DNA of 39,180 nt from Shigella phage ESh3, in sequence record ON528717. One strand, given 5' to 3'. The notes beneath the pieces are model-generated. The model was not told the origin of the DNA and did not search any database. It was given only the letters and a program-made list of their open reading frames with translations. Each line of letters opens with the position of its first letter. Within the stretch, counting starts at the first letter, position 1. This document shows positions 4,241 through 39,180 of the stretch, piece by piece. The translations under genes were made by a program, and so were the position numbers.

Positions 4241-4318
4241 CCTTAAGGTTTAACTTTAAGACCCTTAAGTGTTAATTAGAGATTTAAATTAAAGAATTAC
4301 TAAGAGAGGACTTTAAGT
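4241..4318 (+). other. AT-rich segment of the primary origin of replication downstream of phi1.1A/B
   Basis: ccttaaggtttaactttaagacccttaagtgttaattagagatttaaattaaagaattactaag, AT-rich, position as in T7. Confidence 0.5.
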
Positions 4319-4447
4319 ATGCGTAACTTCGAAAAGATGACCAAACGTTCTAACCGTAACGCTCATGACTTCGAGGCAACTAAAGGTCGCAAGTTGAATA
4401 AGACTAAGCGTGACCGCTCTCATAAACGTAGCTGGGAGGGTCAGTAA
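4319..4447 (+). CDS. 1.1: gene 1.1, small basic protein of unknown function
   Basis: 42-aa ORF MRNFEKMTKRSNRNAHDFEATKGRKLNKTKRDRSHKRSWEGQ, RBS agagagga upstream, 129 bp as in T7. Confidence 0.8.
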   Translation: MRNFEKMTKRSNRNAHDFEATKGRKLNKTKRDRSHKRSWEGQ

Positions 4448-4448
4448 G

Positions 4449-4706
4449 ATGGGACGCTTATACAGTGGGAACTTGAATGACTTCAAGGCTGCTTGCAACA
4501 GGCTCTACCAGTTGGACTTTGCTGTTATAGCTGTTGAGAAGGAAGGTTCACCAAACATAAAGGCAACCATGTACCTTCGGATTGAAGACCGTACTGGGCG
4601 AATGGTGGTTCAGGAAGAGATTCACCACTGCGACGAAGATGTTCTGTACAATATGTGCACTGAGTGGCTGAACCGTATGTACGACCAGTTGAAGGACTGG
4701 AAGTAA
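4449..4706 (+). CDS. 1.2: gene 1.2, host dGTPase (Dgt) inhibitor homologue
   Basis: 85-aa ORF MGRLYSGNL...MYDQLKDWK; conserved N and C termini, central part diverged from recalled T7 gp1.2. Confidence 0.85.
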   Translation: MGRLYSGNLNDFKAACNRLYQLDFAVIAVEKEGSPNIKATMYLRIEDRTGRMVVQEEIHHCDEDVLYNMCTEWLNRMYDQLKDWK

Positions 4707-4726
4707 TACGACTCACTAAAGGAAGA
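4704..4726 (+). promoter_or_regulatory. phage RNAP class II promoter (phi1.3 position), here immediately upstream of the HNH ORF
   Basis: TAATACGACTCACTAAAGGAAGA; overlaps gene 1.2 stop. Confidence 0.8.
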
Positions 4727-4731
4727 AACCA

Positions 4732-5145
4732 ATGAACGACATAAAGCGATTCAACGATAAGACCGAACCATGTGGTGACTGTTTGCGTTGGATTGGTAGC
4801 ATCCAGCCTAATGGCTACGGACGGTTTCGCCTGCATGGTAAGCCTATGTATGCCCATAGGGCTTCGTACATTCTGTTCAACGGTGAGTTGAATAATGGTG
4901 ATGTAGTCCTACACTCCTGTGACAATAGATGGTGTGTAAATCCGGCACACCTAATCAAGGGCACACAGGCAGATAACCTTATAGACATGGCTATCAAAGG
5001 CCGTGGCGCTAGAAAGATAACTAATGAGCAGGTCGAGATGATACGTATGGACCCTCGCTCCGGCAGGGAGCTAGCAAGGGTACTTAATGTAGCTGCTTCG
5101 ACAATAAGCCACATACGAAACGGTAAACTGAGGAAATATATATGA
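4732..5145 (+). CDS. free-standing HNH homing-type endonuclease (zinc-finger HNH with C-terminal helix-turn-helix)
   Basis: 137 aa; Cys14/Cys17 (PCGDCLRW), NGYGR, HR, HSCDNRWCVNPAHL HNH core, C-terminal LARVLNVAASTISHIRNGK; stop overlaps ligase start (ATGA). Confidence 0.85.
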   Translation: MNDIKRFNDKTEPCGDCLRWIGSIQPNGYGRFRLHGKPMYAHRASYILFNGELNNGDVVLHSCDNRWCVNPAHLIKGTQADNLIDMAIKGRGARKITNEQVEMIRMDPRSGRELARVLNVAASTISHIRNGKLRKYI

Positions 5146-6224
5146 TTATCAACTTTAAGACTTCACCATACAAGGCAGTATCTTTCGTAGAGTCTGCCAT
5201 CAAGAAAGCTCTGGATAACGCTGGGTATCTTATCGCTGACATTAAGTACGATGGTGTCCGTGGTAACATCTGCGTAGACAATACCGCTAACTGCTGCTGG
5301 CTCTCTCGTGTGTCTAAAACGATTCCGGCACTGGAGCACCTAAACGGATTTGATGTTCGCTGGAAGCGCCTACTGAACGATGACCGTTGCTTCTACAAAG
5401 ATGGTTTTATGTTAGATGGGGAACTCATGGTCAAAGGCGTAGACTTTAACACAGGGTCCGGCCTACTGCGTACCAAATGGACTGACACCAAGAACCAAGA
5501 GTTCCACGAAGAGTTATTCGTTGAGCCAATCTGTAAGAAAGATAAGGTTCCCTTTAAGCTACACACTGGACACCTTCACGTCAAACTGTACGCTATCCTC
5601 CCGCTGCACATAGTAGAGTCTGGAGAAGACTGTGACGTTATGACGTTGCTCATGCAGGAACACGTTAAGAACATGCTGCCTCTGCTACAGGAATACTTCC
5701 CTGAAATCGAATGGCAAGCGGCTGAGTCTTACGAGGTTTACGACATGGTGGAACTACAGCAACTGTACGAGAAGAAGCGTGAAGAAGGGAACGAGGGTCT
5801 AATTGTGAAAGACCCGATGTGTGTCTATAAGCGCGGTAAGAAGTCAGGCTGGTGGAAAATGAAACCTGAGAACGAAGCTGACGGCATCATTCAAGGTCTG
5901 GTATGGGGTACGAAAGGTCTGGCTAATGAAGGCAAAGTGATTGGTTTTGAGGTGCTTCTTGAGAGTGGTCGTTTAGTTAACGCCACGAATATCTCTCGCG
6001 CCTTAATGGATGAGTTCACTGAGACAGTAAAAGAGGCCACCCTAAGTCAATGGGGATTCTTTAGCCCATACGGTATTGGCGACAATGATGCCTGTACGAT
6101 TAACCCTTACGATGGCTGGGCGTGTCAAATCAGCTACATGGAGGAAACACCTGACGGCTCTCTACGTCACCCATCGTTCGTAATGTTCCGTGGCACAGAG
6201 GACAACCCTCAAGAGAAAATGTAA
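5142..6224 (+). CDS. 1.3: gene 1.3 ATP-dependent DNA ligase
   Basis: 360 aa, KYDGVRG adenylation motif (IKYDGVRGNI), near-identical to recalled T7 ligase. Confidence 0.97.
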   Translation: MIINFKTSPYKAVSFVESAIKKALDNAGYLIADIKYDGVRGNICVDNTANCCWLSRVSKTIPALEHLNGFDVRWKRLLNDDRCFYKDGFMLDGELMVKGVDFNTGSGLLRTKWTDTKNQEFHEELFVEPICKKDKVPFKLHTGHLHVKLYAILPLHIVESGEDCDVMTLLMQEHVKNMLPLLQEYFPEIEWQAAESYEVYDMVELQQLYEKKREEGNEGLIVKDPMCVYKRGKKSGWWKMKPENEADGIIQGLVWGTKGLANEGKVIGFEVLLESGRLVNATNISRALMDEFTETVKEATLSQWGFFSPYGIGDNDACTINPYDGWACQISYMEETPDGSLRHPSFVMFRGTEDNPQEKM

Positions 6225-9473: not shown

Positions 9474-11223
<1,750 letters not shown>

Positions 11224-11235
11224 AGGAGACACATC

Positions 11236-11448
11236 ATGTTCAAACTGATTAAGAAATTAGGCCAACTGCTGGTTCGCATGTACAACGTGGAAGCCAAACG
11301 ACTGAACGATGAGGCCCGTAAAGAGGCCACACAGTCACGCGCTCTGGCGATTCGCTCCAACGAACTGGCTGACAGTGCGTCCACCAAAGTTACCGAAGCT
11401 GCTCGTGTAGCGAACCAAGCTCAACAGCTTTCCAAATTCTTTGAGTAA
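11236..11448 (+). CDS. 4.3: gene 4.3, unknown function
   Basis: 70-aa ORF MFKLIKKLGQLLVRMYNVEAKRLNDEARKEATQS... Confidence 0.8.
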   Translation: MFKLIKKLGQLLVRMYNVEAKRLNDEARKEATQSRALAIRSNELADSASTKVTEAARVANQAQQLSKFFE

Positions 11449-11467
11449 TCAAACAGGAGAAACCATT

Positions 11468-11737
11468 ATGTCAAATGTAGCTGAAACTATTCGCCTATCC
11501 GATACGGCTGACCAGTGGAATCGTCGAGTCCACATCAATGTCCGCAACGGCAAGGCGACTATGGTCTATCGTTGGAAGGACTCTAAGTCCTCTAAGAATC
11601 ACACTCAGCGTATGACGTTGACAGATGAGCAAGCACTTCGTCTGGTTAATGCGCTTACCAAAGCTGCCGTGACAGCAATCCATGAGGCTGGTCGCGTCAA
11701 TGAAGCTATGGCTATCCTCGACAAGATTGATAGCTAA
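11468..11737 (+). CDS. 4.5: gene 4.5 (in T7, inhibitor of Lon-dependent toxin-antitoxin activation)
   Basis: 89 aa MSNVAETIRLSDTADQWNRRVHINVRNGKATMVYRWKDSKSSKNHTQRMTL...; RBS aggaga 7 nt upstream of ATG 11468. Confidence 0.8.
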   Translation: MSNVAETIRLSDTADQWNRRVHINVRNGKATMVYRWKDSKSSKNHTQRMTLTDEQALRLVNALTKAAVTAIHEAGRVNEAMAILDKIDS

Positions 11738-11787
11738 GAGTGGTATCCTAAAGGTCGCCCAATTGGTGGCCTTCATGAATACTATTC
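11738..11787 (+). promoter_or_regulatory. probable RNase III site R4.7
   Basis: aaaggtcgcccaattggtggccttcatgaat hairpin upstream of phi4.7. Confidence 0.4.
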
Positions 11788-11804
11788 AACTCACTATAGG
11801 AGAT
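11782..11804 (+). promoter_or_regulatory. phage RNAP promoter phi4.7 (class II, degenerate upstream half)
   Basis: CTATTCAACTCACTATAGGAGAT; -10 to +6 matches, -17 to -11 poorly conserved. Confidence 0.55.
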
Positions 11805-11810
11805 ATTATC

Positions 11811-12218
11811 ATGCGTGACCCTAAAGTTATCCAAGCAGAAATCGCTAAGTTGGAAGCTGAACTGGAGGACGTTAAGTACCATGAAGCTAAGACTCGCTCC
11901 GCTGTTCATATCTTGAAGAACTTAGGTTGGACTTGGACAAGACAGACTGGCTGGAAGAAACCAGAAGTTACCAAGATGAGCCACAAGGTGTTCGATAAGG
12001 ACACTATGACCCACATCAAGGCTGGTGATTGGGTTAAGGTTGACATGGGAGTCGTTGGTGGATATGGCTACGTCCGCTCAGTGAGTGGTAAATATGCACA
12101 AGTATCATACATCACAGGTGTTACCCCACGAGGAGCAATCGTTGCCGATAAGACCAACATGATTCACACAGGTTTCTTGACAGTTGTCTCGTATGGAGAG
12201 ATTGTTAAGTCACGATAA
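11811..12218 (+). CDS. 4.7: gene 4.7, unknown function
   Basis: 135 aa MRDPKVIQAEIAKLEAELEDVKYHEAKTRSAV... Confidence 0.85.
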   Translation: MRDPKVIQAEIAKLEAELEDVKYHEAKTRSAVHILKNLGWTWTRQTGWKKPEVTKMSHKVFDKDTMTHIKAGDWVKVDMGVVGGYGYVRSVSGKYAQVSYITGVTPRGAIVADKTNMIHTGFLTVVSYGEIVKSR

Positions 12219-14670: not shown

Positions 14671-14786
14671 TGACTATCCGACGTATCAAGAATAAAAAGG
14701 AGTGCGACCACTCTTTCATAGTCAAGGGGGTCGTTGGTTTTTGCTGCCGAGAGTGTATCAAATGCGGATATTTTGAGGTGATGTGA
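14670..14786 (+). CDS. 38-codon Cys-rich micro-ORF (candidate zinc-ribbon peptide), coupled between 5.5 and 5.7
   Basis: MTIRRIKNKKECDHSFIVKGVVGFCCRECIKCGYFEVM; ATG overlaps 5.5 stop (TAATG) and its stop overlaps 5.7 start (TGATG). Confidence 0.5.
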   Translation: MTIRRIKNKKECDHSFIVKGVVGFCCRECIKCGYFEVM

Positions 14787-16240: not shown

Positions 16241-16495
16241 ATGTTAACACCTATTAACCATTTACTTAAGAACCCTAACGATATTCCAGATGTACCTCGT
16301 GCAACCGCTGAGTATCTACAGGTTCGATTCAATTATGCGTACCTCGAAGCGTCTGGTCATATAGGACTTATGCGTGCTAATGGCTGTAGTGAAGCCCACA
16401 TCTTGGGTTTCATTCAGGGCCTACAGTATGCCTCTAACGTCATTGACGAGATTGAGCTACGCAAGGAACAACTAAGAGATGATGGGGAGGATTGA
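16241..16495 (+). CDS. 6.5: gene 6.5, unknown function
   Basis: 84-aa [33 protein letters not shown]... Confidence 0.8.
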
Positions 16496-16499
16496 CCTT

Positions 16500-16766
16500 A
16501 TGTGTTTCTCACCGAAAGTTAAAGTTCCGAAGATGGATACCAATCAGATTCGAGCCGTTGAGCCAGCGCCCCTGACCCAAGAAGTGTCAAGCGTAGAGTT
16601 CGGTGGGTCTTCTGATGAGACGGATACCGAAGGCACCGAAGTGTCTGGACGCAAAGACCTCAAGGTCGAACGCGATGATTCCGTAGCGAAGTCTAAAGCC
16701 AACGGCACTGGCTCCGCTCGTATGAAGTCTTCAATCCGTAAGTCTGCATTTGGAGGCAAGAAGTGA
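16500..16766 (+). CDS. 6.7: gene 6.7, small virion/ejected protein
   Basis: 88 aa MCFSPKVKVPKMDTNQIRAVEPAPLTQEVSSVEFGGSSDETD...; track ORF begins earlier at 16479. Confidence 0.8.
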   Translation: MCFSPKVKVPKMDTNQIRAVEPAPLTQEVSSVEFGGSSDETDTEGTEVSGRKDLKVERDDSVAKSKANGTGSARMKSSIRKSAFGGKK

Positions 16767-17167
16767 TGTCTGAGTTCACATGTGTGGAAGCTGAGAGTCG
16801 CTTCCGTGCAATCCGGTGGACTGTGGAACACCTTGGGTTGCCTAAGGGATTTGAAGGACACTTTGTGGGCTACAGCCTCTACGTAGACGAAGTGATGGAC
16901 ATGTCTGGTTGCCGTGAAGAGTACATTCTTGACTCTACAGGAAAACATGTAGCGTACTTCGCGTGGTGCGTAAGCTGTGACATTCACCATAAGGGAGACA
17001 TTCTGGACGTTACGTCCGTTGTTATTAATCCTGAGGCAGACTCTAAGGGCTTACAGCGATTCATGGCGAAACGCTTTAAGAACCTTGCAGAACTCCATGA
17101 TTGCAATTGGGTGTCCCGCTGTAAACATGAAGGCGAGACAATGCGTGTATACTTTAAGGAGGTATAA
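16766..17167 (+). CDS. 7: gene 7, virion protein
   Basis: 133 aa MSEFTCVEAESRFRAIRWTVEHLGLPKGFEGHF...; ATG overlaps 6.7 stop. Confidence 0.85.
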   Translation: MSEFTCVEAESRFRAIRWTVEHLGLPKGFEGHFVGYSLYVDEVMDMSGCREEYILDSTGKHVAYFAWCVSCDIHHKGDILDVTSVVINPEADSKGLQRFMAKRFKNLAELHDCNWVSRCKHEGETMRVYFKEV

Positions 17168-19215: not shown

Positions 19216-20130
19216 ATGGCTGAATCTAATGCAGACGTATATGCATCTTTTGGCGTGAACTCCGCTGTGATGTCTGGTGGTTCCGTTGAGGAACATGAAC
19301 AGAACATGCTGGCTCTTGATGTTGCTGCCCGTGATGGCGATGATGCAATCGAGTTAGCGCCCGACGAAGTGGAAACAGAACGAGACCTGTATGACAACTC
19401 TGACCCATTCGGTCAAGAGGATGATGAGGGTCGCATTCAGGTTCGTATTGGTGATGGCTCTGAGCCGACCGATGTTGACACTGGGGAAGAAGGCGTTGAG
19501 GGTTCCGAAGAGTTTACCCCACTGGGTGAGACTCCAGAAGAACTGGTAGCTGCCTCTGAGCAACTTGGTGAGCACGAAGAGGGCTTCCAAGAGATGATTA
19601 ACATTGCTGCCGAGCGTGGCATGAGCGTCGAGACCATCGAGGCCATCCAGCGTGAGTACGAGGAGAACGAAGAGTTATCCGCTGAGTCCTACGCTAAGCT
19701 GGCTGAAATTGGTTACACGAAGGCTTTCATCGACTCGTACATTCGCGGTCAAGAAGCTCTGGTGGAGCAGTACGTAAACAGTGTCATTGAGTATGCTGGT
19801 GGTCGTGAGAGTTTTGACGCACTGTATAATCACCTTGAGACGCACAACCCTGAGGCTGCACAGTCGCTGGACAATGCGTTGACCAATCGTGACTTAGCGA
19901 CCGTTAAGGCTATCATCAACTTGGCTGGTGAGTCTCGCGCTAAGGCGTTTGGCCGTAAACCAACTCGTAGCGTGACAAATCGTGCTATTCCGGCTAAACC
20001 TCAAGCTACCAAGCGTGAAGGCTTTGCGGACCGTAGCGAGATGATTAAAGCTATGAGTGACCCACGGTATCGCACAGATGCCAACTATCGTCGTCAAGTC
20101 GAACAGAAAGTAATCGACTCGAACTTCTGA
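19216..20130 (+). CDS. 9: gene 9 capsid assembly (scaffolding) protein
   Basis: 304 aa, highly acidic, MAESNADVYASFGVNSAVMSGGSVEEHEQNMLALDVAARDGDDAIEL... Confidence 0.95.
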   Translation: MAESNADVYASFGVNSAVMSGGSVEEHEQNMLALDVAARDGDDAIELAPDEVETERDLYDNSDPFGQEDDEGRIQVRIGDGSEPTDVDTGEEGVEGSEEFTPLGETPEELVAASEQLGEHEEGFQEMINIAAERGMSVETIEAIQREYEENEELSAESYAKLAEIGYTKAFIDSYIRGQEALVEQYVNSVIEYAGGRESFDALYNHLETHNPEAAQSLDNALTNRDLATVKAIINLAGESRAKAFGRKPTRSVTNRAIPAKPQATKREGFADRSEMIKAMSDPRYRTDANYRRQVEQKVIDSNF

Positions 20131-20143
20131 TAGACTCTGAAAT

Positions 20144-20166
20144 TAATACGACTCACTATAGGGAGA
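20144..20166 (+). promoter_or_regulatory. phage RNAP promoter phi10 (class III) followed by the gene 10 translation leader
   Basis: TAATACGACTCACTATAGGGAGACCACAACGGGTTTCCCTCTAGAAA...TTTAACTTTAAGAAGGAGA. Confidence 0.92.
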
Positions 20167-20225
20167 CCACAACGGGTTTCCCTCTAGAAATCATTATTGT
20201 TTAACTTTAAGAAGGAGACATACAT

Positions 20226-21257
20226 ATGGCTACTATGACTGGTGGACAGCAACTGGGTACTAACCAAGGTAAAGGTCAAAGTGCTGGTGATAAACTGGCG
20301 CTGTTCTTGAAGGTATTTGGTGGTGAAGTCCTGACTGCATTCGCTCGTACCTCTGTGACCACTTCTCGCCACATGACCCGTTCCATCTCCAGCGGTAAAT
20401 CCGCTCAGTTCCCTGTACTGGGTCGCACTCAGGCAGCTTACTTGTCTCCGGGTGAGAACCTCGATGATATTCGTAAAGACATCAAACACACCGAGAAGAC
20501 CATCACCATTGATGGCCTCCTGACGGCAGACGTTCTGATTTACGACATTGAGGACGCGATGAACCACTACGACGTTCGCTCTGAGTATACCTCCCAGTTG
20601 GGTGAGTCTCTAGCGATGGCTGCGGATGGTGCGGTTCTGGCGGAGATTGCTGGTCTGTGTAACTTGGCGAGCGCCTATAACGAGAACATTGAGGGCTTAG
20701 GTACCGCAACTGTAATTGCGACCACTCAGGACAAGGCTACACTTACCGACCAAGTTGCGCTGGGTAAGGAGATTATTGCAGCACTGACCAAGGCTCGTGC
20801 GGCTCTGACCAAGAACTACGTTCCGGCTGCTGACCGTGTGTTCTACTGTGACCCAGATAGCTATTCTGCGATTCTGGCAGCACTGATGCCGAACGCGGCA
20901 AACTACGCTGCTCTTATTGACCCTGAGAAGGGTTCTATCAGAAACGTTATGGGCTTCGAGGTTGTAGAAGTTCCTCACCTCACCGCTGGTGGCGCTGGCA
21001 CCTCTCGTGCGGATGCAACTGGTCAGAAACATTCCTTCCCTGCGTCTCATGATAGCACCAACAAGGTTGCTAAGGACAATGTTATTGGCCTGTTCATGCA
21101 CCGCTCTGCGGTAGGTACTGTTAAACTGCGTGACTTGGCTCTGGAGCGCGCTCGCCGTGCTAACTTCCAAGCTGACCAGATTATCGCTAAGTACGCAATG
21201 GGCCATGGTGGTCTGCGCCCAGAAGCTGCTGGTGCTGTGGTTTTCAAGACGGAGTAA
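20226..21257 (+). CDS. 10A: gene 10A major capsid protein
   Basis: 343 aa MATMTGGQQLGTNQGKGQSAGDKLALFLKVFGGEVLTAFARTSVTTSRHM... Confidence 0.97.
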   Translation: MATMTGGQQLGTNQGKGQSAGDKLALFLKVFGGEVLTAFARTSVTTSRHMTRSISSGKSAQFPVLGRTQAAYLSPGENLDDIRKDIKHTEKTITIDGLLTADVLIYDIEDAMNHYDVRSEYTSQLGESLAMAADGAVLAEIAGLCNLASAYNENIEGLGTATVIATTQDKATLTDQVALGKEIIAALTKARAALTKNYVPAADRVFYCDPDSYSAILAALMPNAANYAALIDPEKGSIRNVMGFEVVEVPHLTAGGAGTSRADATGQKHSFPASHDSTNKVAKDNVIGLFMHRSAVGTVKLRDLALERARRANFQADQIIAKYAMGHGGLRPEAAGAVVFKTE

Positions 21258-31879: not shown

Positions 31880-33709
31880 ATGGCTAACGTAATTAAAACC
31901 GTTTTGACTTACCCGTTAGATGGTTCCAATCGTGATTTTAATATCCCGTTTGAGTATCTAGCCCGTAAGTTCGTAGTGGTAACTCTTATCGGTGTAGACC
32001 GCAAGGTCCTTACGATTAATACAGACTATCGTTTTGCTACGCGTACTACAATCTCACTGACCAAGGCTTGGGGTCCAGCCGATGGCTATACTCTCATAGA
32101 GCTACGTCGAGTAACCTCCACGACCGACCGCTTGGTTGACTTTACTGACGGCTCAATCCTCCGTGCGTATGACCTTAACGTTGCTCAGATTCAAACAATG
32201 CACGTAGCAGAAGAAGCTCGTGACCTAACTGCTGATACCATTGGTGTCAATAACGACGGTCACTTGGATGCCCGTGGTCGTCGCATCGTGAACGTAGCGG
32301 ATGGTATTGAACCAGGCGATGCAATAACTCTAGGTCAAGTCACGCGGTGGAATGATTCTGCCCTGAACTCAAAGAACGCCGCAAAGGTCTCTGAGACAAA
32401 CGCTAAGGATTCCGAGAACAAGGCGAAAGCGTCTGAGACCAATGCAAAGAACTCTGAGAACCTAGCTCACGATTGGGCGCAGAAGTCCGAGGACTCTCCG
32501 GTGACTGGCTCTGAATATTCCGCTTACCATTATTCCCGTAAGTCGTCAGCTAGTGCTAATGCGGCTGCTTCGAGTGCTGCTGCAAGTCTGTCCTCACAGA
32601 ACGCTGCGAAGGTCTCCGAGGATAACGCCAAGGTCTCAGAGACAAACGCTAAGGCTTCTGAGGTTTCCGCTAAGGATGATGCTGATAGAGCAGAACGTGA
32701 GGCAGATAAGCTGGGTAACATGAATGCCCTTGCTGAGGCAATAGAGACAGTACAAGATGGTTATGTGCTCTGGAAGAACCACGTAAGGACAAAGAGTGGA
32801 AACGTGTTTGCGGAACGGTGGTTTGATGTAGAACCCGCATTTAACGAGTATTATGCTTCGAGTTTGCTGATTGCGACTTATCGTATTAGCGGTATTGAGA
32901 GACTTACTACAGCACTGTATACTGAGGGTAATTGGGGGCAGGGCGCTACCGAGCGCGGGACGATTGCCATACTTCGCAGGAATGGTGGTAACGAACTCAC
33001 TGGTGGCGCCTATTTCCACTTTTACCCAAATGGCTCTTTCTACTCTAATACCCACTCAGCGATGGGATGGCAAGGTGGTTGGGAGGACGTAGCAAGAGAA
33101 CCTCATCGCGCACCATTCAGAGTAAACGATGTTGTTAATAACAATGGCGGGTTTGTTCCTGCCTTAACTTGTTACAGCGTGTCCACTGGGGGGTATCCTC
33201 TTCGCTTCACAACTGGTATCATTTCCAATGGAACAGGGAATTGGCCTGAGGCTGTAATTGCACGCATGGACGGAGATAATAACCATTCGGCGACTTACCA
33301 GTGCCAGATGGGAGGCGGGATTTACGCGTGGATGAGATCATATGATGGGTCTGTTCGCGGGATCTCGTTCGCCGTAGAACCACAGTCAGATGCGCGCCTT
33401 AAGACTGTTCATGGTCGGTTGGATACCAAACTACCACTAAGTAACATTGAGTCTATGAACTTTGTTGAGTTTACCTTTAACTACGACAAGAAGGAAGCAA
33501 TACGCCGTGGAGTCATTGCACAGGAACTACAGAAGATTGACCCAGAGTACGTCCACAAAAAGGTGTATAAGATCGGTGGTGGGGAGGAAATGGAAATCCT
33601 TCAGTTAGACCTTACACCAATGACTCTGGATGCACTAGCCGCAATCCAAGAGTTGTCGAATCAAGTTAAAGAACTCAAGGCAGAACTTAAACAAATCAAG
33701 GGAGACTAA
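31880..33709 (+). CDS. 17: gene 17 tail fibre, mosaic: T7-like N-terminal attachment domain, different distal domain, C-terminal intramolecular chaperone
   Basis: 609 aa; N-terminus MANVIKTVLTYPLDGSNRDFNIPFEYLARKFVVVTLIGVDRKV... matches T7 gp17, homology lost after about residue 140. Confidence 0.92.
   Translation: MANVIKTVLTYPLDGSNRDFNIPFEYLARKFVVVTLIGVDRKVLTINTDYRFATRTTISLTKAWGPADGYTLIELRRVTSTTDRLVDFTDGSILRAYDLNVAQIQTMHVAEEARDLTADTIGVNNDGHLDARGRRIVNVADGIEPGDAITLGQVTRWNDSALNSKNAAKVSETNAKDSENKAKASETNAKNSENLAHDWAQKSEDSPVTGSEYSAYHYSRKSSASANAAASSAAASLSSQNAAKVSEDNAKVSETNAKASEVSAKDDADRAEREADKLGNMNALAEAIETVQDGYVLWKNHVRTKSGNVFAERWFDVEPAFNEYYASSLLIATYRISGIERLTTALYTEGNWGQGATERGTIAILRRNGGNELTGGAYFHFYPNGSFYSNTHSAMGWQGGWEDVAREPHRAPFRVNDVVNNNGGFVPALTCYSVSTGGYPLRFTTGIISNGTGNWPEAVIARMDGDNNHSATYQCQMGGGIYAWMRSYDGSVRGISFAVEPQSDARLKTVHGRLDTKLPLSNIESMNFVEFTFNYDKKEAIRRGVIAQELQKIDPEYVHKKVYKIGGGEEMEILQLDLTPMTLDALAAIQELSNQVKELKAELKQIKGD
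32370..32690 (+). repeat. imperfect tandem 21-nt (heptad) repeats encoding the (A/S)ETNAK(x) coiled-coil shaft of the tail fibre
   Basis: Two blocks: AAKVSETNAKDSENKAKASETNAKNSEN and AAKVSEDNAKVSETNAKASEVSAKDDAD, visible at nucleotide level (gtctctgagacaaacgctaagg twice). Confidence 0.6.
33386..33709 (+). other. C-terminal intramolecular chaperone / peptidase S74-type self-cleaving domain of the tail fibre (predicted cleavage at Ser503)
   Basis: SDARLK motif (Ser503, Lys508) followed by ...LSNIESMNFVEF..., IRRGVIAQELQKIDPEYV and a C-terminal helical segment QELSNQVKELKAELKQIKGD. Confidence 0.6.
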
Positions 33710-33746
33710 CTAATAGACCACGGATGGTCAACATAGGGAGGACACA

Positions 33747-34772: not shown

Positions 34773-36533
34773 GTGTCTACTCAATCCAACCGTAATGCGC
34801 TCGTAGTGGCGCAACTGAAAGGAGACTTCGTGGCGTTCCTGTTCGTCTTATGGAAGGCGTTAAACCTTCCGGTGCCAACTAAGTGTCAGATTGACATGGC
34901 TAAGGTACTGGCGAATGGGGATAACAAGAAGTTCATCCTACAGGCTTTCCGTGGTATCGGTAAGTCGTTCATCACATGTGCGTTCGTTGTGTGGTCCCTA
35001 TGGAGAGACCCTCAGTTGAAGATACTCATTGTATCAGCCTCTAAGGAACGTGCAGACGCTAACTCCATCTTCATTAAGAACATCATTGACCTGCTGCCAT
35101 TCCTCGCTGAGCTAAAGCCGAGGCCCGGTCAGCGTGACTCTGTAATCAGCTTTGATGTAGGCCCAGCCAATCCTGACCACTCTCCTAGTGTGAAATCAGT
35201 AGGTATCACTGGTCAGTTAACTGGTAGCCGTGCTGACATTATCATTGCGGATGACGTGGAGATTCCGTCTAACAGTGCGACTATGGGTGCCCGTGAGAAG
35301 CTCTGGACTCTTGTTCAGGAGTTCGCTGCGTTACTTAAGCCGCTGCCCACCTCTCGCGTTATCTACCTCGGTACACCTCAGACAGAGATGACTCTCTATA
35401 AGGAACTTGAGGATAACCGTGGGTACACAACCATAATCTGGCCTGCTCTGTACCCAAGGACTCATGAAGAGAACCTCTATTACTCACAGCGTCTTGCTCC
35501 TATGCTACGCGCTGAGTACGATGAGAACCCTGAGGCACTTGCTGGTACTCCTACAGACCCTGTGCGCTTTGACCGTGATGACCTCCGTGAGCGTGAATTG
35601 GAATACGGTAAGGCTGGCTTCACACTACAGTTCATGCTTAACCCGAACCTGAGTGATGCCGAGAAGTACCCTCTGAGGCTCCGTGACGCTATCGTAGCGG
35701 CCTTAGACTTAGAGAAGGCCCCAATGCATTACCAGTGGCTTCCTAACCGTCAGAACATCATTGAGGACCTTCCTAACGTTGGTCTTAAGGGTGATGACCT
35801 TCATACGTACCATGATTGCTCCAACAACTCAGGTCAGTATCAACAGAAGATTCTGGTTATTGACCCTAGTGGTCGCGGTAAGGACGAAACAGGTTACGCT
35901 GTTCTGTACACCCTGAACGGCTACATCTACCTTATGGAAGCTGGAGGTTTCCGTGATGGCTACTCCGATAAGACCCTTGAGTTGCTCGCTAAGAAAGCTA
36001 AGCAATGGGGAGTCCAGACGGTTGTCTACGAGAGTAACTTCGGTGACGGTATGTTTGGTAAGGTGTTCAGTCCCATCCTTCTTAAACACCACAACTGTGC
36101 AATGGAAGAGATTCGTGCCCGTGGTATGAAAGAGATGCGTATTTGTGATACCCTTGAGCCAGTCATGCAGACTCACCGCCTTGTCATTCGTGATGAGGTC
36201 ATTAGGGCCGACTACCAGTCCGCTCGTGACGTAGACGGTAAGCATGACGTTAAATACTCACTGTTCTACCAGATGACCCGTATCACTCGTGAGAAAGGTG
36301 CTCTGGCCCATGATGACCGATTGGATGCCCTTGCGTTAGGCATTGAGTATCTCCGTGAGTCCATGCAGTTGGATTCCGTTAAGGTCGAAGGTGAAGTGCT
36401 TGCTGACTTCCTTGAGGAGCACATGATGCGTCCTACAGTGTCTGCTACCCACATCATTGAGATGTCTGTAGGAGGAGTTGATGTGTACTCCGAGGACGAT
36501 GAGGGTTACGGTACGTCTTTCATTGAGTGGTGA
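34773..36533 (+). CDS. 19: gene 19 terminase large subunit (DNA maturase B), apparent GTG start
   Basis: 586 aa [45 protein letters not shown]..., RBS aaggagg 4 nt upstream. Confidence 0.97.
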
Positions 36534-36614
36534 TTTATTCACTGAGACTGCATAGGGATGCACTATAGACCACGGATGGTAAGTTCTTTAAGTTACTGAA
36601 AAGACACAATAAAT

Positions 36615-36637
36615 TAATACGACTCACTATAGGGAGA
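36615..36637 (+). promoter_or_regulatory. phage RNAP promoter phiOR (right-end replication/packaging promoter)
   Basis: TAATACGACTCACTATAGGGAGA exact. Confidence 0.9.
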
Positions 36638-36792
36638 GGAGGGACGAAAGGTTACTATATAGATACTGAATGAATACTTATAGAGTGCATAAAGTATGCA
36701 TATAGGTGTACCTAACGTGACCTCTAAGAATGGTGATTATATTGTTATTAATATCACCTCTACTTAAAGACCAACATAAAGGAGGGAGACTC

Positions 36793-36942
36793 ATGTTCCG
36801 CTTATTGTTGACCTTGTTGCGGCATAGAGTCACCTACCGATTTCTTGTGGTACTTTGTGCTGCCCTTGGGTACGCATCTCTTACTGGAGACCTCAGTTCA
36901 CTGGAGTCTGCCGTTTGCTCTATACTCACTTGTAGCGATTAG
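36793..36942 (+). CDS. 19.5: gene 19.5, small hydrophobic protein
   Basis: 49 aa MFRLLLTLLRHRVTYRFLVVLCAALGYASLTGDLSSLESAVCSILTCSD; RBS aaggaggga. Confidence 0.75.
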   Translation: MFRLLLTLLRHRVTYRFLVVLCAALGYASLTGDLSSLESAVCSILTCSD

Positions 36943-36959
36943 GGTCTTCCTGACCGACT

Positions 36960-37181
36960 GATGGCTCACCGAGGGATTCAGCGGTATGATTGCATCACGC
37001 CACTTCATCCCTATAGAGTCAAGTCCTAAGGTATATCCACAAAGAGCCTCTAATGGTCTATCCTAAGGTCTATACCTAAAGATAGACCATCCTATCAGTG
37101 GAACCTAAAGAGGGTCTCAGAGAGGGCCTAAGGAGTCCATAGAGGGTCCTTTAAAATATACCATAAAAATCTGAGTGACTA
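36960..37181 (+). repeat. right-end non-coding region with CCTAAAG/CCTAAGG-type short repeats preceding the terminal repeat (packaging / concatemer-processing region)
   Basis: cctaaggtatatcc..cctaaggtctatacctaaagatagaccatcc..aacctaaagagggtc..gggcctaaggagtcc; matches recalled T7 right end. Confidence 0.45.
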
Positions 37182-37347
37182 TCTCACAGTGTACGGACCT
37201 AAAGTTCCCCCATAGGGGTACCTAAAGCCCAGCCAATCACCTTGAGTCAACTTTCAGTTGACCTTGAGGGTTCCCTAGGGTTGGGGTTGGTCCCTTGGGG
37301 TTTACCTTGAGTGTCTCTTCTTGTCCCTATCTGTTCAGTCTCCTAAA
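37182..37347 (+). repeat. direct terminal repeat of the linear genome (single collapsed copy); physical genome ends lie here
   Basis: Begins TCTCACAGTGTACGGACCTAAAGTTCCCCCATAGGGG and ends ..CTGTTCAGTCTCCTAAA, colinear with the recalled 160-bp T7 terminal repeat. Confidence 0.6.
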
Positions 37348-37348
37348 G

Positions 37349-37512
37349 TATCCTCCTAAAGTCACCTCCTAAAGTCATTCCTACCGTCTACAACCTAAAG
37401 ACTACACCTAAAGACCCATCGAGTCAACGCCTATCTTAAAGTATCTTCTAAAGACCATCCTAAAGACCATTCTAAAGACCATCCTAAAGACCATCCTAAA
37501 GCCTATTCCTAC
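37349..37512 (+). repeat. left-end short tandem repeat region (CCTAAAG heptamers, then a 12-bp tandem array of about 6 units)
   Basis: gtatcttctaaa gaccatcctaaa gaccattctaaa gaccatcctaaa gaccatcctaaa gcctattcctac at 37441-37512. Confidence 0.6.
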
Positions 37513-37562
37513 AGACGCCTTGTTGTTATCTATAAAGAGATAATCTTCAATCATTGTCTCTT

Positions 37563-37585
37563 TAATACGACTCACTATAAGGAGA
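37563..37585 (+). promoter_or_regulatory. phage RNAP promoter phiOL (left end)
   Basis: TAATACGACTCACTATAAGGAGA. Confidence 0.8.
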
Positions 37586-37634
37586 CTACTTAAAGATACC
37601 TTAAAAGAGAAATTAAAGAATTTTAAAAAGAGTA

Positions 37635-37663
37635 TTGACTTAAAGAGTCCTAGGGATTACTAT
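37635..37663 (+). promoter_or_regulatory. host sigma70 early promoter A1
   Basis: -35 TTGACT, 17-bp spacer, -10 TACTAT. Confidence 0.7.
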
Positions 37664-37761
37664 TCATCTCGTCAACGGGACAACGGCCTTAAAGCCACTC
37701 CCTGAGATACCGGGGTCAACCGGATAAGTAGACAGCCTGTAAGTCGCACGAAAAACAGGTA

Positions 37762-37791
37762 TTGACAACACGAAATAACATGCAGTAAGAT
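37762..37791 (+). promoter_or_regulatory. host sigma70 early promoter A2
   Basis: -35 TTGACA, 18-bp spacer, -10 TAAGAT. Confidence 0.75.
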
Positions 37792-37876
37792 ACACAACGT
37801 AGCGTCAACCGGACGCACGCAAGGTGTCTTCTAGGTGACTTAAGCGCACCACGGCACACAAAGTGAAACAAAACGG

Positions 37877-37905
37877 TTGACAACATGAAGTAAACACGGT
37901 ACGAT
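37877..37905 (+). promoter_or_regulatory. host sigma70 early promoter A3
   Basis: -35 TTGACA, 17-bp spacer, -10 TACGAT. Confidence 0.75.
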
Positions 37906-38044
37906 GTACCACAGCTACCACAGGGTAGCACATGAAACGACAGTGAGGCGCAACACTGAAAGGCGCTAGGGTCTAACGAAACCTGACCGACATGCTCTTT
38001 AACAATCTGGTAAATAGCTCTTGAGGTGCACGAATAGCGGATAA

Positions 38045-38081
38045 CTCAAGGGTATCGCAAGGTGCCCTTTATGATATTCAC
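38045..38081 (+). promoter_or_regulatory. RNase III site R0.3
   Basis: ctcaagggtatcgcaaggtgccctttatgatattcac hairpin upstream of gene 0.3. Confidence 0.5.
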
Positions 38082-38106
38082 TAATAACTGCACGAGGTAA
38101 CACAAG

Positions 38107-38448
38107 ATGGCTATGTCTAACATGACTTACAACAACGTTTTCGACCACGCTTACGAAATGCTGAAAGAAAACATCCGTTATGATGACATCCGCGACACTG
38201 ATGACATGCACGATGCTATTCATATGGCTGCCGATAGCGCAATCCCGCACTACTACGCTGATATTTTTAGCGTAATGGCAAGCGAGGGCATTGACCTTGA
38301 GTTCGAAGACTCTGGTCTTATGCCGGACACCAAGGACATAATCCGTATCCTGCAAGCTCGTATCTATGAGCAACTCACGATTGACCTCTGGGAAGACGCT
38401 GAGGACTTACTTAACGAGTACCTTGAGGAAGTCGAGGAAGAAGAGTAA
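38107..38448 (+). CDS. ocr: gene 0.3 Ocr, DNA-mimic anti-restriction protein (inhibits type I R-M; reported to inhibit BREX)
   Basis: 113 aa [77 protein letters not shown]..., acidic. Confidence 0.95.
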
Positions 38449-38603
38449 TGGCTAACAACAACACGCAATACGGTCTGACCGCTCAAACTGTACTGTTTTA
38501 TAGTGACATGGTGCGCTGTGGGTTTAACTGGTCGCTCGCAATGACACACCTTAAGGAACTGTACGAAAACAACAAGGCAATCGCTCTAGAATCTGCTGAG
38601 TGA
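38448..38603 (+). CDS. 0.4: gene 0.4 (in T7, inhibitor of FtsZ / cell division)
   Basis: 51 aa [51 protein letters not shown]; ATG overlaps ocr stop. Confidence 0.85.
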   Translation: MANNNTQYGLTAQTVLFYSDMVRCGFNWSLAMTHLKELYENNKAIALESAE

Positions 38604-38607
38604 TAGG

Positions 38608-38650
38608 CTCAAGGTCGCTCCTAACGAGTGGCCTTTATGATTATCACTTA
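38608..38650 (+). promoter_or_regulatory. RNase III-type site (R0.5), copy a of a 43-bp direct repeat
   Basis: ctcaaggtcgctcctaacgagtggcctttatgattatcactt. Confidence 0.6.
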
Positions 38651-38671
38651 ACTTGCAGTAGGACTAACATC

Positions 38672-38872
38672 ATGAGTAAACTTTTGGCAACCTCCAAAAT
38701 CAAAGGCCAATGCACTGTGACACTGCGTGAGTATTACCACGGGTCTATGGGAAGCACCTACGTTGTACGATACGGTAAACAGGTAACACATTGGGTAAAC
38801 CCGATTTTGGCGCAAGAAGAGTATCAAGCCTGTGTGATACACCAAGCAACATGTGCAGGCTGGAATGATTGA
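38672..38872 (+). CDS. 66-aa early accessory ORF of unknown function, bracketed by the duplicated R site
   Basis: MSKLLATSKIKGQCTVTLREYYHGSMGSTYVVRYGKQVTHWVNPILAQEEYQACVIHQATCAGWND; track ORF starts at 38600, ATG 38672 chosen because it follows R site copy a. Confidence 0.6.
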   Translation: MSKLLATSKIKGQCTVTLREYYHGSMGSTYVVRYGKQVTHWVNPILAQEEYQACVIHQATCAGWND

Positions 38873-38924
38873 CAACACTATTTGCACTAACTGGACATAG
38901 CCTTCGAGTCTACCCAGTGATAAA

Positions 38925-38967
38925 CTCAAGGTCGCTCCTAGCGAGTGGCCTTTATGATTATCACTTT
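38925..38967 (+). promoter_or_regulatory. RNase III-type site, copy b of the 43-bp direct repeat (42/43 identical to copy a)
   Basis: ctcaaggtcgctcctagcgagtggcctttatgattatcactt; upstream gtgata also shared with copy a. Confidence 0.6.
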
Positions 38968-38988
38968 TACTTATGGGAGTAATACACA

Positions 38989-39117
38989 ATGCTTACTATC
39001 GGTCTACTCACCGCTCTAGGTCTAGCTGTAGGCGCATCCTTTGGGAAGTCTTTGGGTGTCGCTGTAGGCGCTTACTTGGTCGCTTGTATCATCACGGGAG
39101 CACTACGCAAATGCTGA
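38989..39117 (+). CDS. 0.5: small hydrophobic membrane peptide at the gene 0.5 position
   Basis: 42 aa MLTIGLLTALGLAVGASFGKSLGVAVGAYLVACIITGALRKC; RBS gggag 9 nt upstream; Gly/Ala-rich TM-like. Confidence 0.6.
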   Translation: MLTIGLLTALGLAVGASFGKSLGVAVGAYLVACIITGALRKC

Positions 39118-39128
39118 AACAGCACGGT

Positions 39129-39180
39129 ATGAAACACTACGTTATGCCCATCCACACTTCCAACGGGGCAACTGTATGCA
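39129..39180 (+). CDS. 0.6: gene 0.6A, N-terminal part (continues at window position 1)
   Basis: ATG 39129 then MKHYVMPIHTSNGATVC, open to the end of the window and in frame with 1..107. Confidence 0.6.
   Translation, partial: MKHYVMPIHTSNGATVC

Follow-up and report, generated by a model that had tools for sequence, protein, structure and literature searches.

Papers describing the genomes of T7 and T3 relatives routinely count HNH genes among the variable elements, under the names 'mobile' or 'parasitic' (PMC4925675, PMC11680406, PMC12295037), and the HNH genes dispersed in T3 relatives have been described as parasitic (PMC11680406). In T7, genes 2.8, 3.8 and 7.7 are regarded as coding for homing endonucleases, a phage with all three deleted is viable, and such proteins have been proposed to attenuate the break-sensing defence GAPS4 independently of catalysis (bioRxiv 10.1101/2025.09.07.674715). 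The two T7 proteins that matter most here are gp2.8 and gp7.7, which are dispensable, and with which the protein described below shares a length of 130–139 aa, a free-standing gene lodged between conserved genes with start/stop overlaps, a C..W..G..GYG motif, an H-x-CDN-x-x-C-x-N-x-x-HL core, a GT..(D/E)N helix and a C-terminal helix-turn-helix (HTH). Our literature search found no paper characterising the enzyme encoded at the junction of genes 1.2 and 1.3 in such phages, or showing homing by gp2.8 or gp7.7.

More distant systems provide useful points of reference. I-HmuI of SPO1, an HNH nicking enzyme (PDB 1U3E), is intron-encoded, larger (174 aa) and devoid of the Cys/His zinc site of the protein studied here, while I-PpoI is eukaryotic, intron-encoded and dimeric, and lacks the HTH that this protein possesses. 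As regards the lifestyle that we propose, the parallel is with SegB, SegG and MobE of T4-type phages, which occupy an intergenic slot, cleave the endonuclease-less allele nearby and cause co-conversion of the flanks (PMC2330249, PMC2790892). The Seg proteins are GIY-YIG enzymes for which homing and marker exclusion are experimental, whereas for the gene described below homing is deduced from comparative genomics.

The 1.2/ligase junction in ESh3

The window analysed here is the whole 39,180-nt sequence of Shigella phage ESh3, a complete, circularly permuted genome of the T7-like genus Teseptimavirus, whose position 1 corresponds approximately to T7 nt 1691. Over its first 25 kb, this genome is 96% identical at the nucleotide level to Shigella phage ESh1 and 92% identical to T7, and the T7 gene order is kept, that is, 0.7, 1 (RNA polymerase), 1.1, 1.2, 1.3 (ligase) and onward. 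Upstream of the junction, and like all the features below on the + strand, lies gene 1.2 (4449–4706), annotated as dGTPase inhibitor in relatives, the product of which is 96.5% identical to YpYeO9 gp1.2 and 60% identical to T7 gp1.2. Downstream lies gene 1.3 (5142–6224), annotated as DNA ligase in relatives, which encodes an ATP-dependent DNA ligase that is 94% identical to the T7 enzyme over its first 215 aa. Between the two, an open reading frame (ORF) of 137 codons plus stop, supported by profile matches and a structure model, runs from an ATG at 4732 to 5145. When ESh3 was compared by blastn with the whole T7 genome, and the alignments inspected, the segment 4723–5130 had no T7 counterpart. 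The other ESh3 segments absent from T7 are the tail-fibre C-terminus, 14676–14774 and 38655–38896, while T7 has genes 2.8, 3.8, 5.3 and 7.7 and a tail-fibre C-terminus that are absent from ESh3.

A first-pass annotation of this DNA, made from the sequence alone, had placed a free-standing HNH gene at 4704–5145, behind a class II phage promoter and with its stop codon overlapping the ligase start. The 137-codon ORF, the promoter and the overlap are all as it described, except that 4704 is where the promoter begins and not the ORF, which starts at 4732. The promoter, TAATACGACTCACTAAAGGAAGA, occupies 4704–4726, has two mismatches to the T7 RNA polymerase consensus and aligns with T7 phi1.3, of which it is the orthologue; 10 sites of this quality occur in ESh3 and none in shuffled sequence. 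Its first 3 nt are the TAA stop codon of gene 1.2 (4704–4706), exactly as at T7 phi1.3. Transcription is predicted to start at G4721, which would leave an 11-nt leader before the ATG of the HNH ORF, and AAGGAAG (4719–4725) is its likely Shine-Dalgarno sequence. The possibility that this promoter (…CACTAAAGGAAGA) is a T7/T3 hybrid from a T3-like donor is unproven: the HNH genes of phages Bas104 and 64795_ec1 stand behind normal phi1.3-type sequence, and CACTAAAGG is present in natural T7 class II promoters.

At the other end of the ORF, its TGA (5143–5145) overlaps the ligase ATG (5142–5144) in an ATGA at 5142–5145, and the ligase ribosome-binding site (RBS), a GAGG at 5130–5133, lies 8 bases 5' of that ATG, inside the 3' end of the HNH ORF (the whole arrangement spanning 5130–5145). 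The ligase is thus translationally coupled to the HNH ORF, which, starting 11 nt past the predicted +1 and carrying the ligase RBS and start overlap, has taken over the promoter and translational coupling of the ligase, as the first-pass annotation had it. Its description of the T7 interval as holding just phi1.3 and an RNase III site was also accurate, since these 80 nt comprise only the phi1.3 promoter, a strong hairpin (−23 kcal/mol, z −3.5 on RNA folding) and the ligase RBS. On the basis of published T7 work, we equate this hairpin with R1.3, an RNase III site. The picture of an insertion between gene 1.2 and the ligase gene therefore stands as to position only: this is no simple insertion, as the R1.3 hairpin is absent in ESh3, as is the original RBS of the ligase, and the HNH cassette stands in their place. 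On folding, the RNA of the ESh3 HNH/ligase junction is unstructured, and a search for a replacement RNase III-type hairpin at the 5' end of the HNH ORF and at the HNH/ligase junction found none. Two moderately stable folds occur within the HNH ORF (4805–4915, about −22 kcal/mol), which may be due to chance.

A two-domain HNH protein of the gp2.8/gp7.7 type

The predicted protein (MNDIKRFNDKTEPCGDCLRW...HSCDNRWCVNPAHL...RKYI) displays a C14/C17 pair, N27-G-Y-G-R31, H42-R43 and the HNH core HSCDNRWCVNPAHL, which spans H61–L74. It matches Pfam HNH_3 (PF13392) over aa 40–82 with 34.6 bits, well above the gathering cut-off of 24.8, and PHROG 59 ('HNH endonuclease') with an E-value of 1e-30. These scores, together with dN/dS values of 0.15–0.28 among the ESh3, WW2 and Bas104 copies, which show that the gene is under purifying selection, rule out a chance reading frame. 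Elsewhere the profile and sequence searches gave little: the match to the Pfam His-Cys box family zf-His_Me_endon reached 25.8 bits, under the family cut-off of 27, Pfam HTH profiles matched below threshold only, NCBIfam yielded no model for this protein, and a PDB sequence search returned nothing significant (best E-value 1.1).

An AlphaFold2 model built from 45 homologues has a mean pLDDT of 89. It consists of a β-rich N-terminal domain ending in a β-hairpin and helix (strands 58–61 and 74–77, helix 79–88), which has the ββα-metal fold, followed after a short linker of lower confidence by three short helices (98–106, 111–118 and 122–129). The closest structures found by Foldseek are I-HmuI and I-PpoI, with weak E-values (0.017), and it took this structural comparison to reveal the link because the PDB sequence search was empty. 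The product thus has two domains, a ββα-metal nuclease that is probably zinc-stabilised (aa ~1–90, nt 4732–5001) and a C-terminal HTH (aa ~98–129, nt 5023–5118). The HTH, which had already been suspected on first reading, is supported by the modelled three-helix structure, sub-threshold though its Pfam matches are.

Across the 45 homologues, C17, Y29, G30, H42, H61, C63, C68, P71 and H73 are invariant, and conservation reaches at least 95% at D64, N65, N70 (43 of 45), N82 (44 of 45) and D85, so that the metal-site His and Asn residues, the loss of which on careful alignment would have spoken against an active HNH enzyme, are retained. By the spacing of the HNH_3 profile rather than by superposition, we propose that H61 is the general base and that N82 is a metal ligand, the counterpart of Asn96 in I-HmuI; N70 would be the structural Asn. 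C17, C63 and C68 probably form a structural zinc site with H42 or H73. The zinc-finger CxxC of the first-pass annotation is therefore only partly borne out: both C14 and C17 are present, and C17 is invariant, but C14 is found in just 11 of the 45 homologues.

The protein is about 39% identical to both T7 gp2.8 (E-value 5e-23) and T7 gp7.7 (E-value 8e-26), over 120–128 aligned aa, and this similarity is full-length, including the C-terminal HTH, which places it in the gp2.8/gp7.7 subfamily. That a member of the same family sits at gene 2.8 in T7, where ESh3 has no ORF, had been proposed on first reading and is correct, the T7 2.8 segment having no ESh3 counterpart. The ESh3 genome was searched for further members of the family and contains none, and the 2.8 position is occupied in phage pO111 by a copy that is 47.6% identical. 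The differences from the T7 proteins are those of site and context. The ESh3 gene is at the 1.2/1.3 junction, whereas genes 2.8 and 7.7 are at 2.5/3 and 7.3/8; unlike them, it follows immediately on a phage promoter and takes the place of an RNase III-type hairpin; and its product has both cysteines of the CxxC, when gp2.8 has only the second.

Distribution among T7-group phages

When the region 4300–5600 of ESh3 was used in a megablast search, 187 phage records matched, of which only two, ESh1 and Yersinia phage WW2, covered at least 80% of it. Most of the others skip the HNH ORF, including T7, 13a, YpYeO9 and LNA7, which settles in the negative the question of whether this might be a core gene of all relatives, as T7 and most close relatives have no ORF at the junction. 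By tblastn, the sub-lineage of the ESh3 protein (at least 89% identity) comprises only ESh1 (100%; URY10656.1, 'hypothetical protein'), WW2 (94%; UYE95489.1, 'HNH endonuclease') and Bas104 (89%; XPK40403.1, 'endonuclease'). Next come more distant copies, many of them annotated 'HNH endonuclease', in T3-like, Klebsiella and Morganella phages: these are 61–65% identical in 64795_ec1, Yanou, CT02, ESh12, ECA2, E-2, Patroon and several Klebsiella phages, 56% in Morganella phage phiA020 and ~43% in numerous Klebsiella phages of the Przondovirus group, IME205 among them.

All the copies inspected lie between gene 1.2 and the ligase gene and abut the ligase start, and all except that of phiA020 have a stop/start overlap with it, which is annotated in ESh1, WW2, Bas104, Patroon, ECA2, 64795_ec1, IME205 and Yanou. 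The junction genes of other Studiervirinae (ESh1, WW2, Bas104, 64795_ec1, ECA2, Patroon, E-2, Yanou, IME205 and phiA020) are thus of the same family and at the same junction, from 100% down to 43% aa identity, and the HNH–ligase linkage extends to at least four Studiervirinae genera. Of 50 IMG/VR loci that a search with the ligase brought up, 8 also have the HNH gene. The same slot can be held by something else: at the 1.2/ligase junction of Yersinia phage Yep_9 is a different HNH, 52% identical to T7 gp3.8 (E-value 9e-23) and only marginally similar to the ESh3 protein. In sum, presence is sporadic among otherwise collinear relatives, one family is found at several sites and several families are found at one site, which is the classical pattern of free-standing homing endonuclease genes. 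The ESh3 gene is an ordinary example, of a kind that is already known and mostly annotated at this same junction in T7-group phages.

Possible transfer and the 5' end of the ligase gene

The cassette is more alike between carriers than the genes around it. At synonymous sites, the HNH genes of ESh3 and WW2 differ less than the adjacent ligase genes (dS 0.18 vs 0.48), and the same is true for ESh3 and ESh1 (0.02 vs 0.14). The block made of the promoter, the HNH gene and the initial 45 nt of the ligase gene shows significantly fewer differences than its neighbouring genes in each of the three comparisons (p 9e-7, 9e-8 and 1e-13). With the RNA polymerase gene as reference, the excess similarity of the cassette is modest for ESh1 (p 0.02) and WW2 (p 2e-4), and absent for Bas104 (p 0.45). 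An ungapped dN/dS of 0.68 for the Bas104 ligase was discarded as an indel artefact. In Bas104, gene 1.2 is only ~50–65% similar to that of ESh3, after which similarity rises to ~90% exactly from the promoter, an onset that is so abrupt because Bas104 carries another allele of gene 1.2 (66% at the nucleotide level), and the high similarity extends ~250 nt into the ligase gene. This pattern would fit gene conversion with short co-converted flanks. We regard it as suggestive, because T7-group genomes are generally mosaic and the excess over the RNA polymerase gene is weak or absent.

Across genera, the HNH gene has diverged about as much as the ligase gene (65/70% and 57/55%), which would equally fit long vertical residence with repeated loss. 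In the 64795_ec1/Yanou type, on the other hand, the HNH protein is 61–62% identical to that of ESh3 while the ligase is 86% identical, which suggests that the gene was acquired independently in that type or that the two types parted at an earlier date. Taken together, these comparisons point to a history in which the gene may have resided for long in some lineages and have been acquired separately at least once.

The part of the ligase gene that adjoins the cassette appears to move with it. Its first ~15 codons (5142–5186) differ by 0–1 nt in 45 among HNH-bearing genomes, and the first ~13–15 codons read MIINFKTSPYKAV in the HNH-bearing clade of ESh3 and MMNIKTNPFKAV in HNH-less relatives, beyond which the two kinds of sequence become nearly identical. 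Among 61 loci with a readable ligase start, the Pro-Tyr-Lys variant occurs in 12 of the 16 with a gp2.8-type HNH vs nine of the 44 without (Fisher p 1.7e-4, related loci being treated as independent), the exceptions being 64795_ec1, Yanou, L041 and L042. These codon differences are candidates for a co-conversion tract, for polymorphisms conferring target-site immunity, or for both, and our guess is that the recognition site of the HNH protein may include these conserved codons.

How the gene is maintained

We conclude that the ESh3 ORF is most probably a free-standing homing endonuclease gene, intron-less and intein-less, of the T7 gp2.8/gp7.7 type, although its homing and cleavage activities are themselves inferred. 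The view of it as a mobile homing endonuclease, which was already that of the first-pass annotation, draws its support from the presence of the family at other sites and from the patchy distribution. In such a scenario, the protein would be made early or mid-infection from phi1.3 and read-through transcripts. During a mixed infection, its HTH and N-terminal domain would bind an extended, degenerate site at or close to the HNH-less 1.2/ligase junction, which probably takes in the highly conserved first ~13 ligase codons, and H61, with a bound divalent metal, would nick or cut the HNH-less DNA. Recombinational repair from the HNH-bearing genome would then copy the cassette along with the ligase 5' codons next to it. 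We propose that the carrier genome is spared because its hairpin/RBS spacer is missing and its ligase 5' codons differ, and that precise loss of the cassette is costly, since the ligase RBS and start codon would go with it.

It may be asked whether the gene persists chiefly for some benefit to the phage, its product binding DNA ends or breaks and blunting break-sensing host defences, or cutting the DNA of co-infecting competitors, which would partly overlap with homing. In favour of such a role, catalytically dead T7 gp3.8, as well as an HNH of a BASEL phage, is reported to attenuate GAPS4, and T7 without 2.8, 3.8 and 7.7 to be outcompeted only in the presence of GAPS4 (bioRxiv 10.1101/2025.09.07.674715); purifying selection on the HNH gene and persistence of its linkage to the ligase in at least four genera are also as expected. 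However, the only T7 protein tested singly in that preprint is gp3.8, which belongs to another HNH lineage, gp2.8 and gp7.7 having been covered by the triple deletion only. Most close relatives have no gene at all at the junction, ESh3 does without all four T7 cassettes while being otherwise collinear, and the catalytic residues are invariant, which pure DNA binding would not need. We therefore hold benefit to the phage to be an unlikely main reason for the maintenance of the gene. Somewhat less likely again is that the HNH–ligase pairing is a selected partnership, and not simply the outcome of a conserved target in the ligase 5' codons, in which nicks would be sealed by the co-expressed ligase, or DNA ends bound and the phage shielded from break-sensing defences in the way proposed for gp3.8 and GAPS4, the gene having become a domesticated accessory; what prompts this reading is the repeated pairing in at least four genera, always coupled, and the loss of the R1.3 site.

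Still more doubtful is the notion that the ORF is a decaying, inactive relic of a homing endonuclease retained for the ligase RBS and start codon that it contains. Precise loss would indeed require a replacement RBS, given that the RBS and the ATGA overlap are within the ORF, and the family varies at C14 of the CxxC. A relic is hard to reconcile, however, with a reading frame that is intact in every copy seen, with dN/dS values that are low across the whole ORF, with proposed catalytic and zinc residues that are all invariant and with a confident structure model, and since alleles that lack HNH but have an RBS of their own are frequent, recombinational loss would be easy. Least probable of all is a non-mobile part of a replication or repair module, working as a nicking partner or a regulator of the ligase. 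The constant location of the gene directly 5' of the ligase gene, with translational coupling, across genera, and the C-terminal HTH, might suggest as much, but T7 and most relatives have functional ligase genes without any HNH, paralogues are found at unrelated junctions (2.8 and 7.7), a different HNH lineage can hold this very junction, and conserved ligase 5' codons serving as target provide a simpler account of the linkage. A terminase-associated HNH of the HK97 gp74 type was also considered and is excluded, given a location in the class II region, at a distance of ~29 kb from gene 19 (34773–36533), and absence from most relatives.

Implications

The significance of a homing endonuclease gene at this junction is small beyond annotation, for which it allows the ESh1 orthologue, now a 'hypothetical protein', to be named. 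It does offer a clean example of how most of the differences in gene content between T7 and a relative that is 92% identical consist of homing-endonuclease cassettes, and it identifies the 1.2/ligase junction as a recurrent landing site, used by two different HNH lineages. For those who engineer or recombine T7-group phages, biased inheritance of the 1.2–ligase region is to be expected in mixed infections with HNH-bearing phages. As for the molecular mechanisms, (i) the cassette, by removing the R1.3 RNase III site and rewiring ligase translation, amounts to a natural experiment on T7 mRNA processing, and (ii) the PFK-to-PYK change in the ligase N-terminus provides a concrete guess at the recognition site of an endonuclease family that is otherwise uncharacterised.

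Gene 1.2 and the 1.2/ligase junction

Gene 1.2 (window 4449-4706), the dGTPase inhibitor gene lying upstream of the HNH ORF, encodes a protein that shares only 60% identity with its T7 counterpart, against 96.5% with the gp1.2 of Yersinia phage YpYeO9. A third gene 1.2 allele (approximately 43% identical) adjoins the same HNH in Bas104, in 64795_ec1 and in the T3-like phages. These identities, and the third allele beside the same HNH, show gene 1.2 to be strongly mosaic; a recombination boundary falls at the phi1.3 promoter. Tandem gene 1.2 alleles, T7-type then T3-type, are found in another T7-like genome, IMGVR_UViG_2974612054_000001 (locus L020, 852-1423), where the ligase downstream of the pair is HNH-less.

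In Yersinia phage vB_Yep_9 (locus L005), the slot that holds the HNH in the window is occupied by a gp3.8-type HNH (743-1165), which is 52% identical to T7 gp3.8, and the ligase N-terminus, MQIKTMPFKAV, is yet another variant.

Genome-wide comparison with T7

Relative to T7, the window is circularly permuted: its position 1 corresponds to approximately T7 nt 1691, while genes 0.3-0.5, which T7 has at its left end, are found at 38107-39111 (within the region 36600-39180). The assembly has evidently collapsed the terminal repeat. In the whole-genome comparison, genes 2.8, 3.8, 5.3 and 7.7 (T7 nt 9861-10277, 11214-11585, 16469-16833 and 19844-20239) are the sole T7 segments unmatched in the window besides the tail-fibre C-terminus. 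All four endonuclease-like cassettes of T7 are missing from this genome, which carries a single one, at 1.2/1.3. As for the tail fibre, nothing in T7 matches the C-terminal part of gene 17 (ORF 31880..33709) at nucleotide level, over 32300-33713; this is a swap of the receptor-binding domain, as is typical when host range varies.

Two short segments have no T7 counterpart, one of 242 nt between genes 0.4 and 0.5 (38655-38896), with a small ORF on the + strand (within 38600..38872; counted from its internal ATG it encodes approximately 66 aa, MSKLLATSKIKGQC...), and one of 99 nt directly after gene 5.5 (14676-14774). The gene 4.7 homologue (11682-12218) shows 98.5% identity to T7 gp4.7 across 11811-12215. 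The ORF that holds it starts at an ATG 43 codons before this stretch, an extension that is probably no more than an open frame rather than part of a longer protein.
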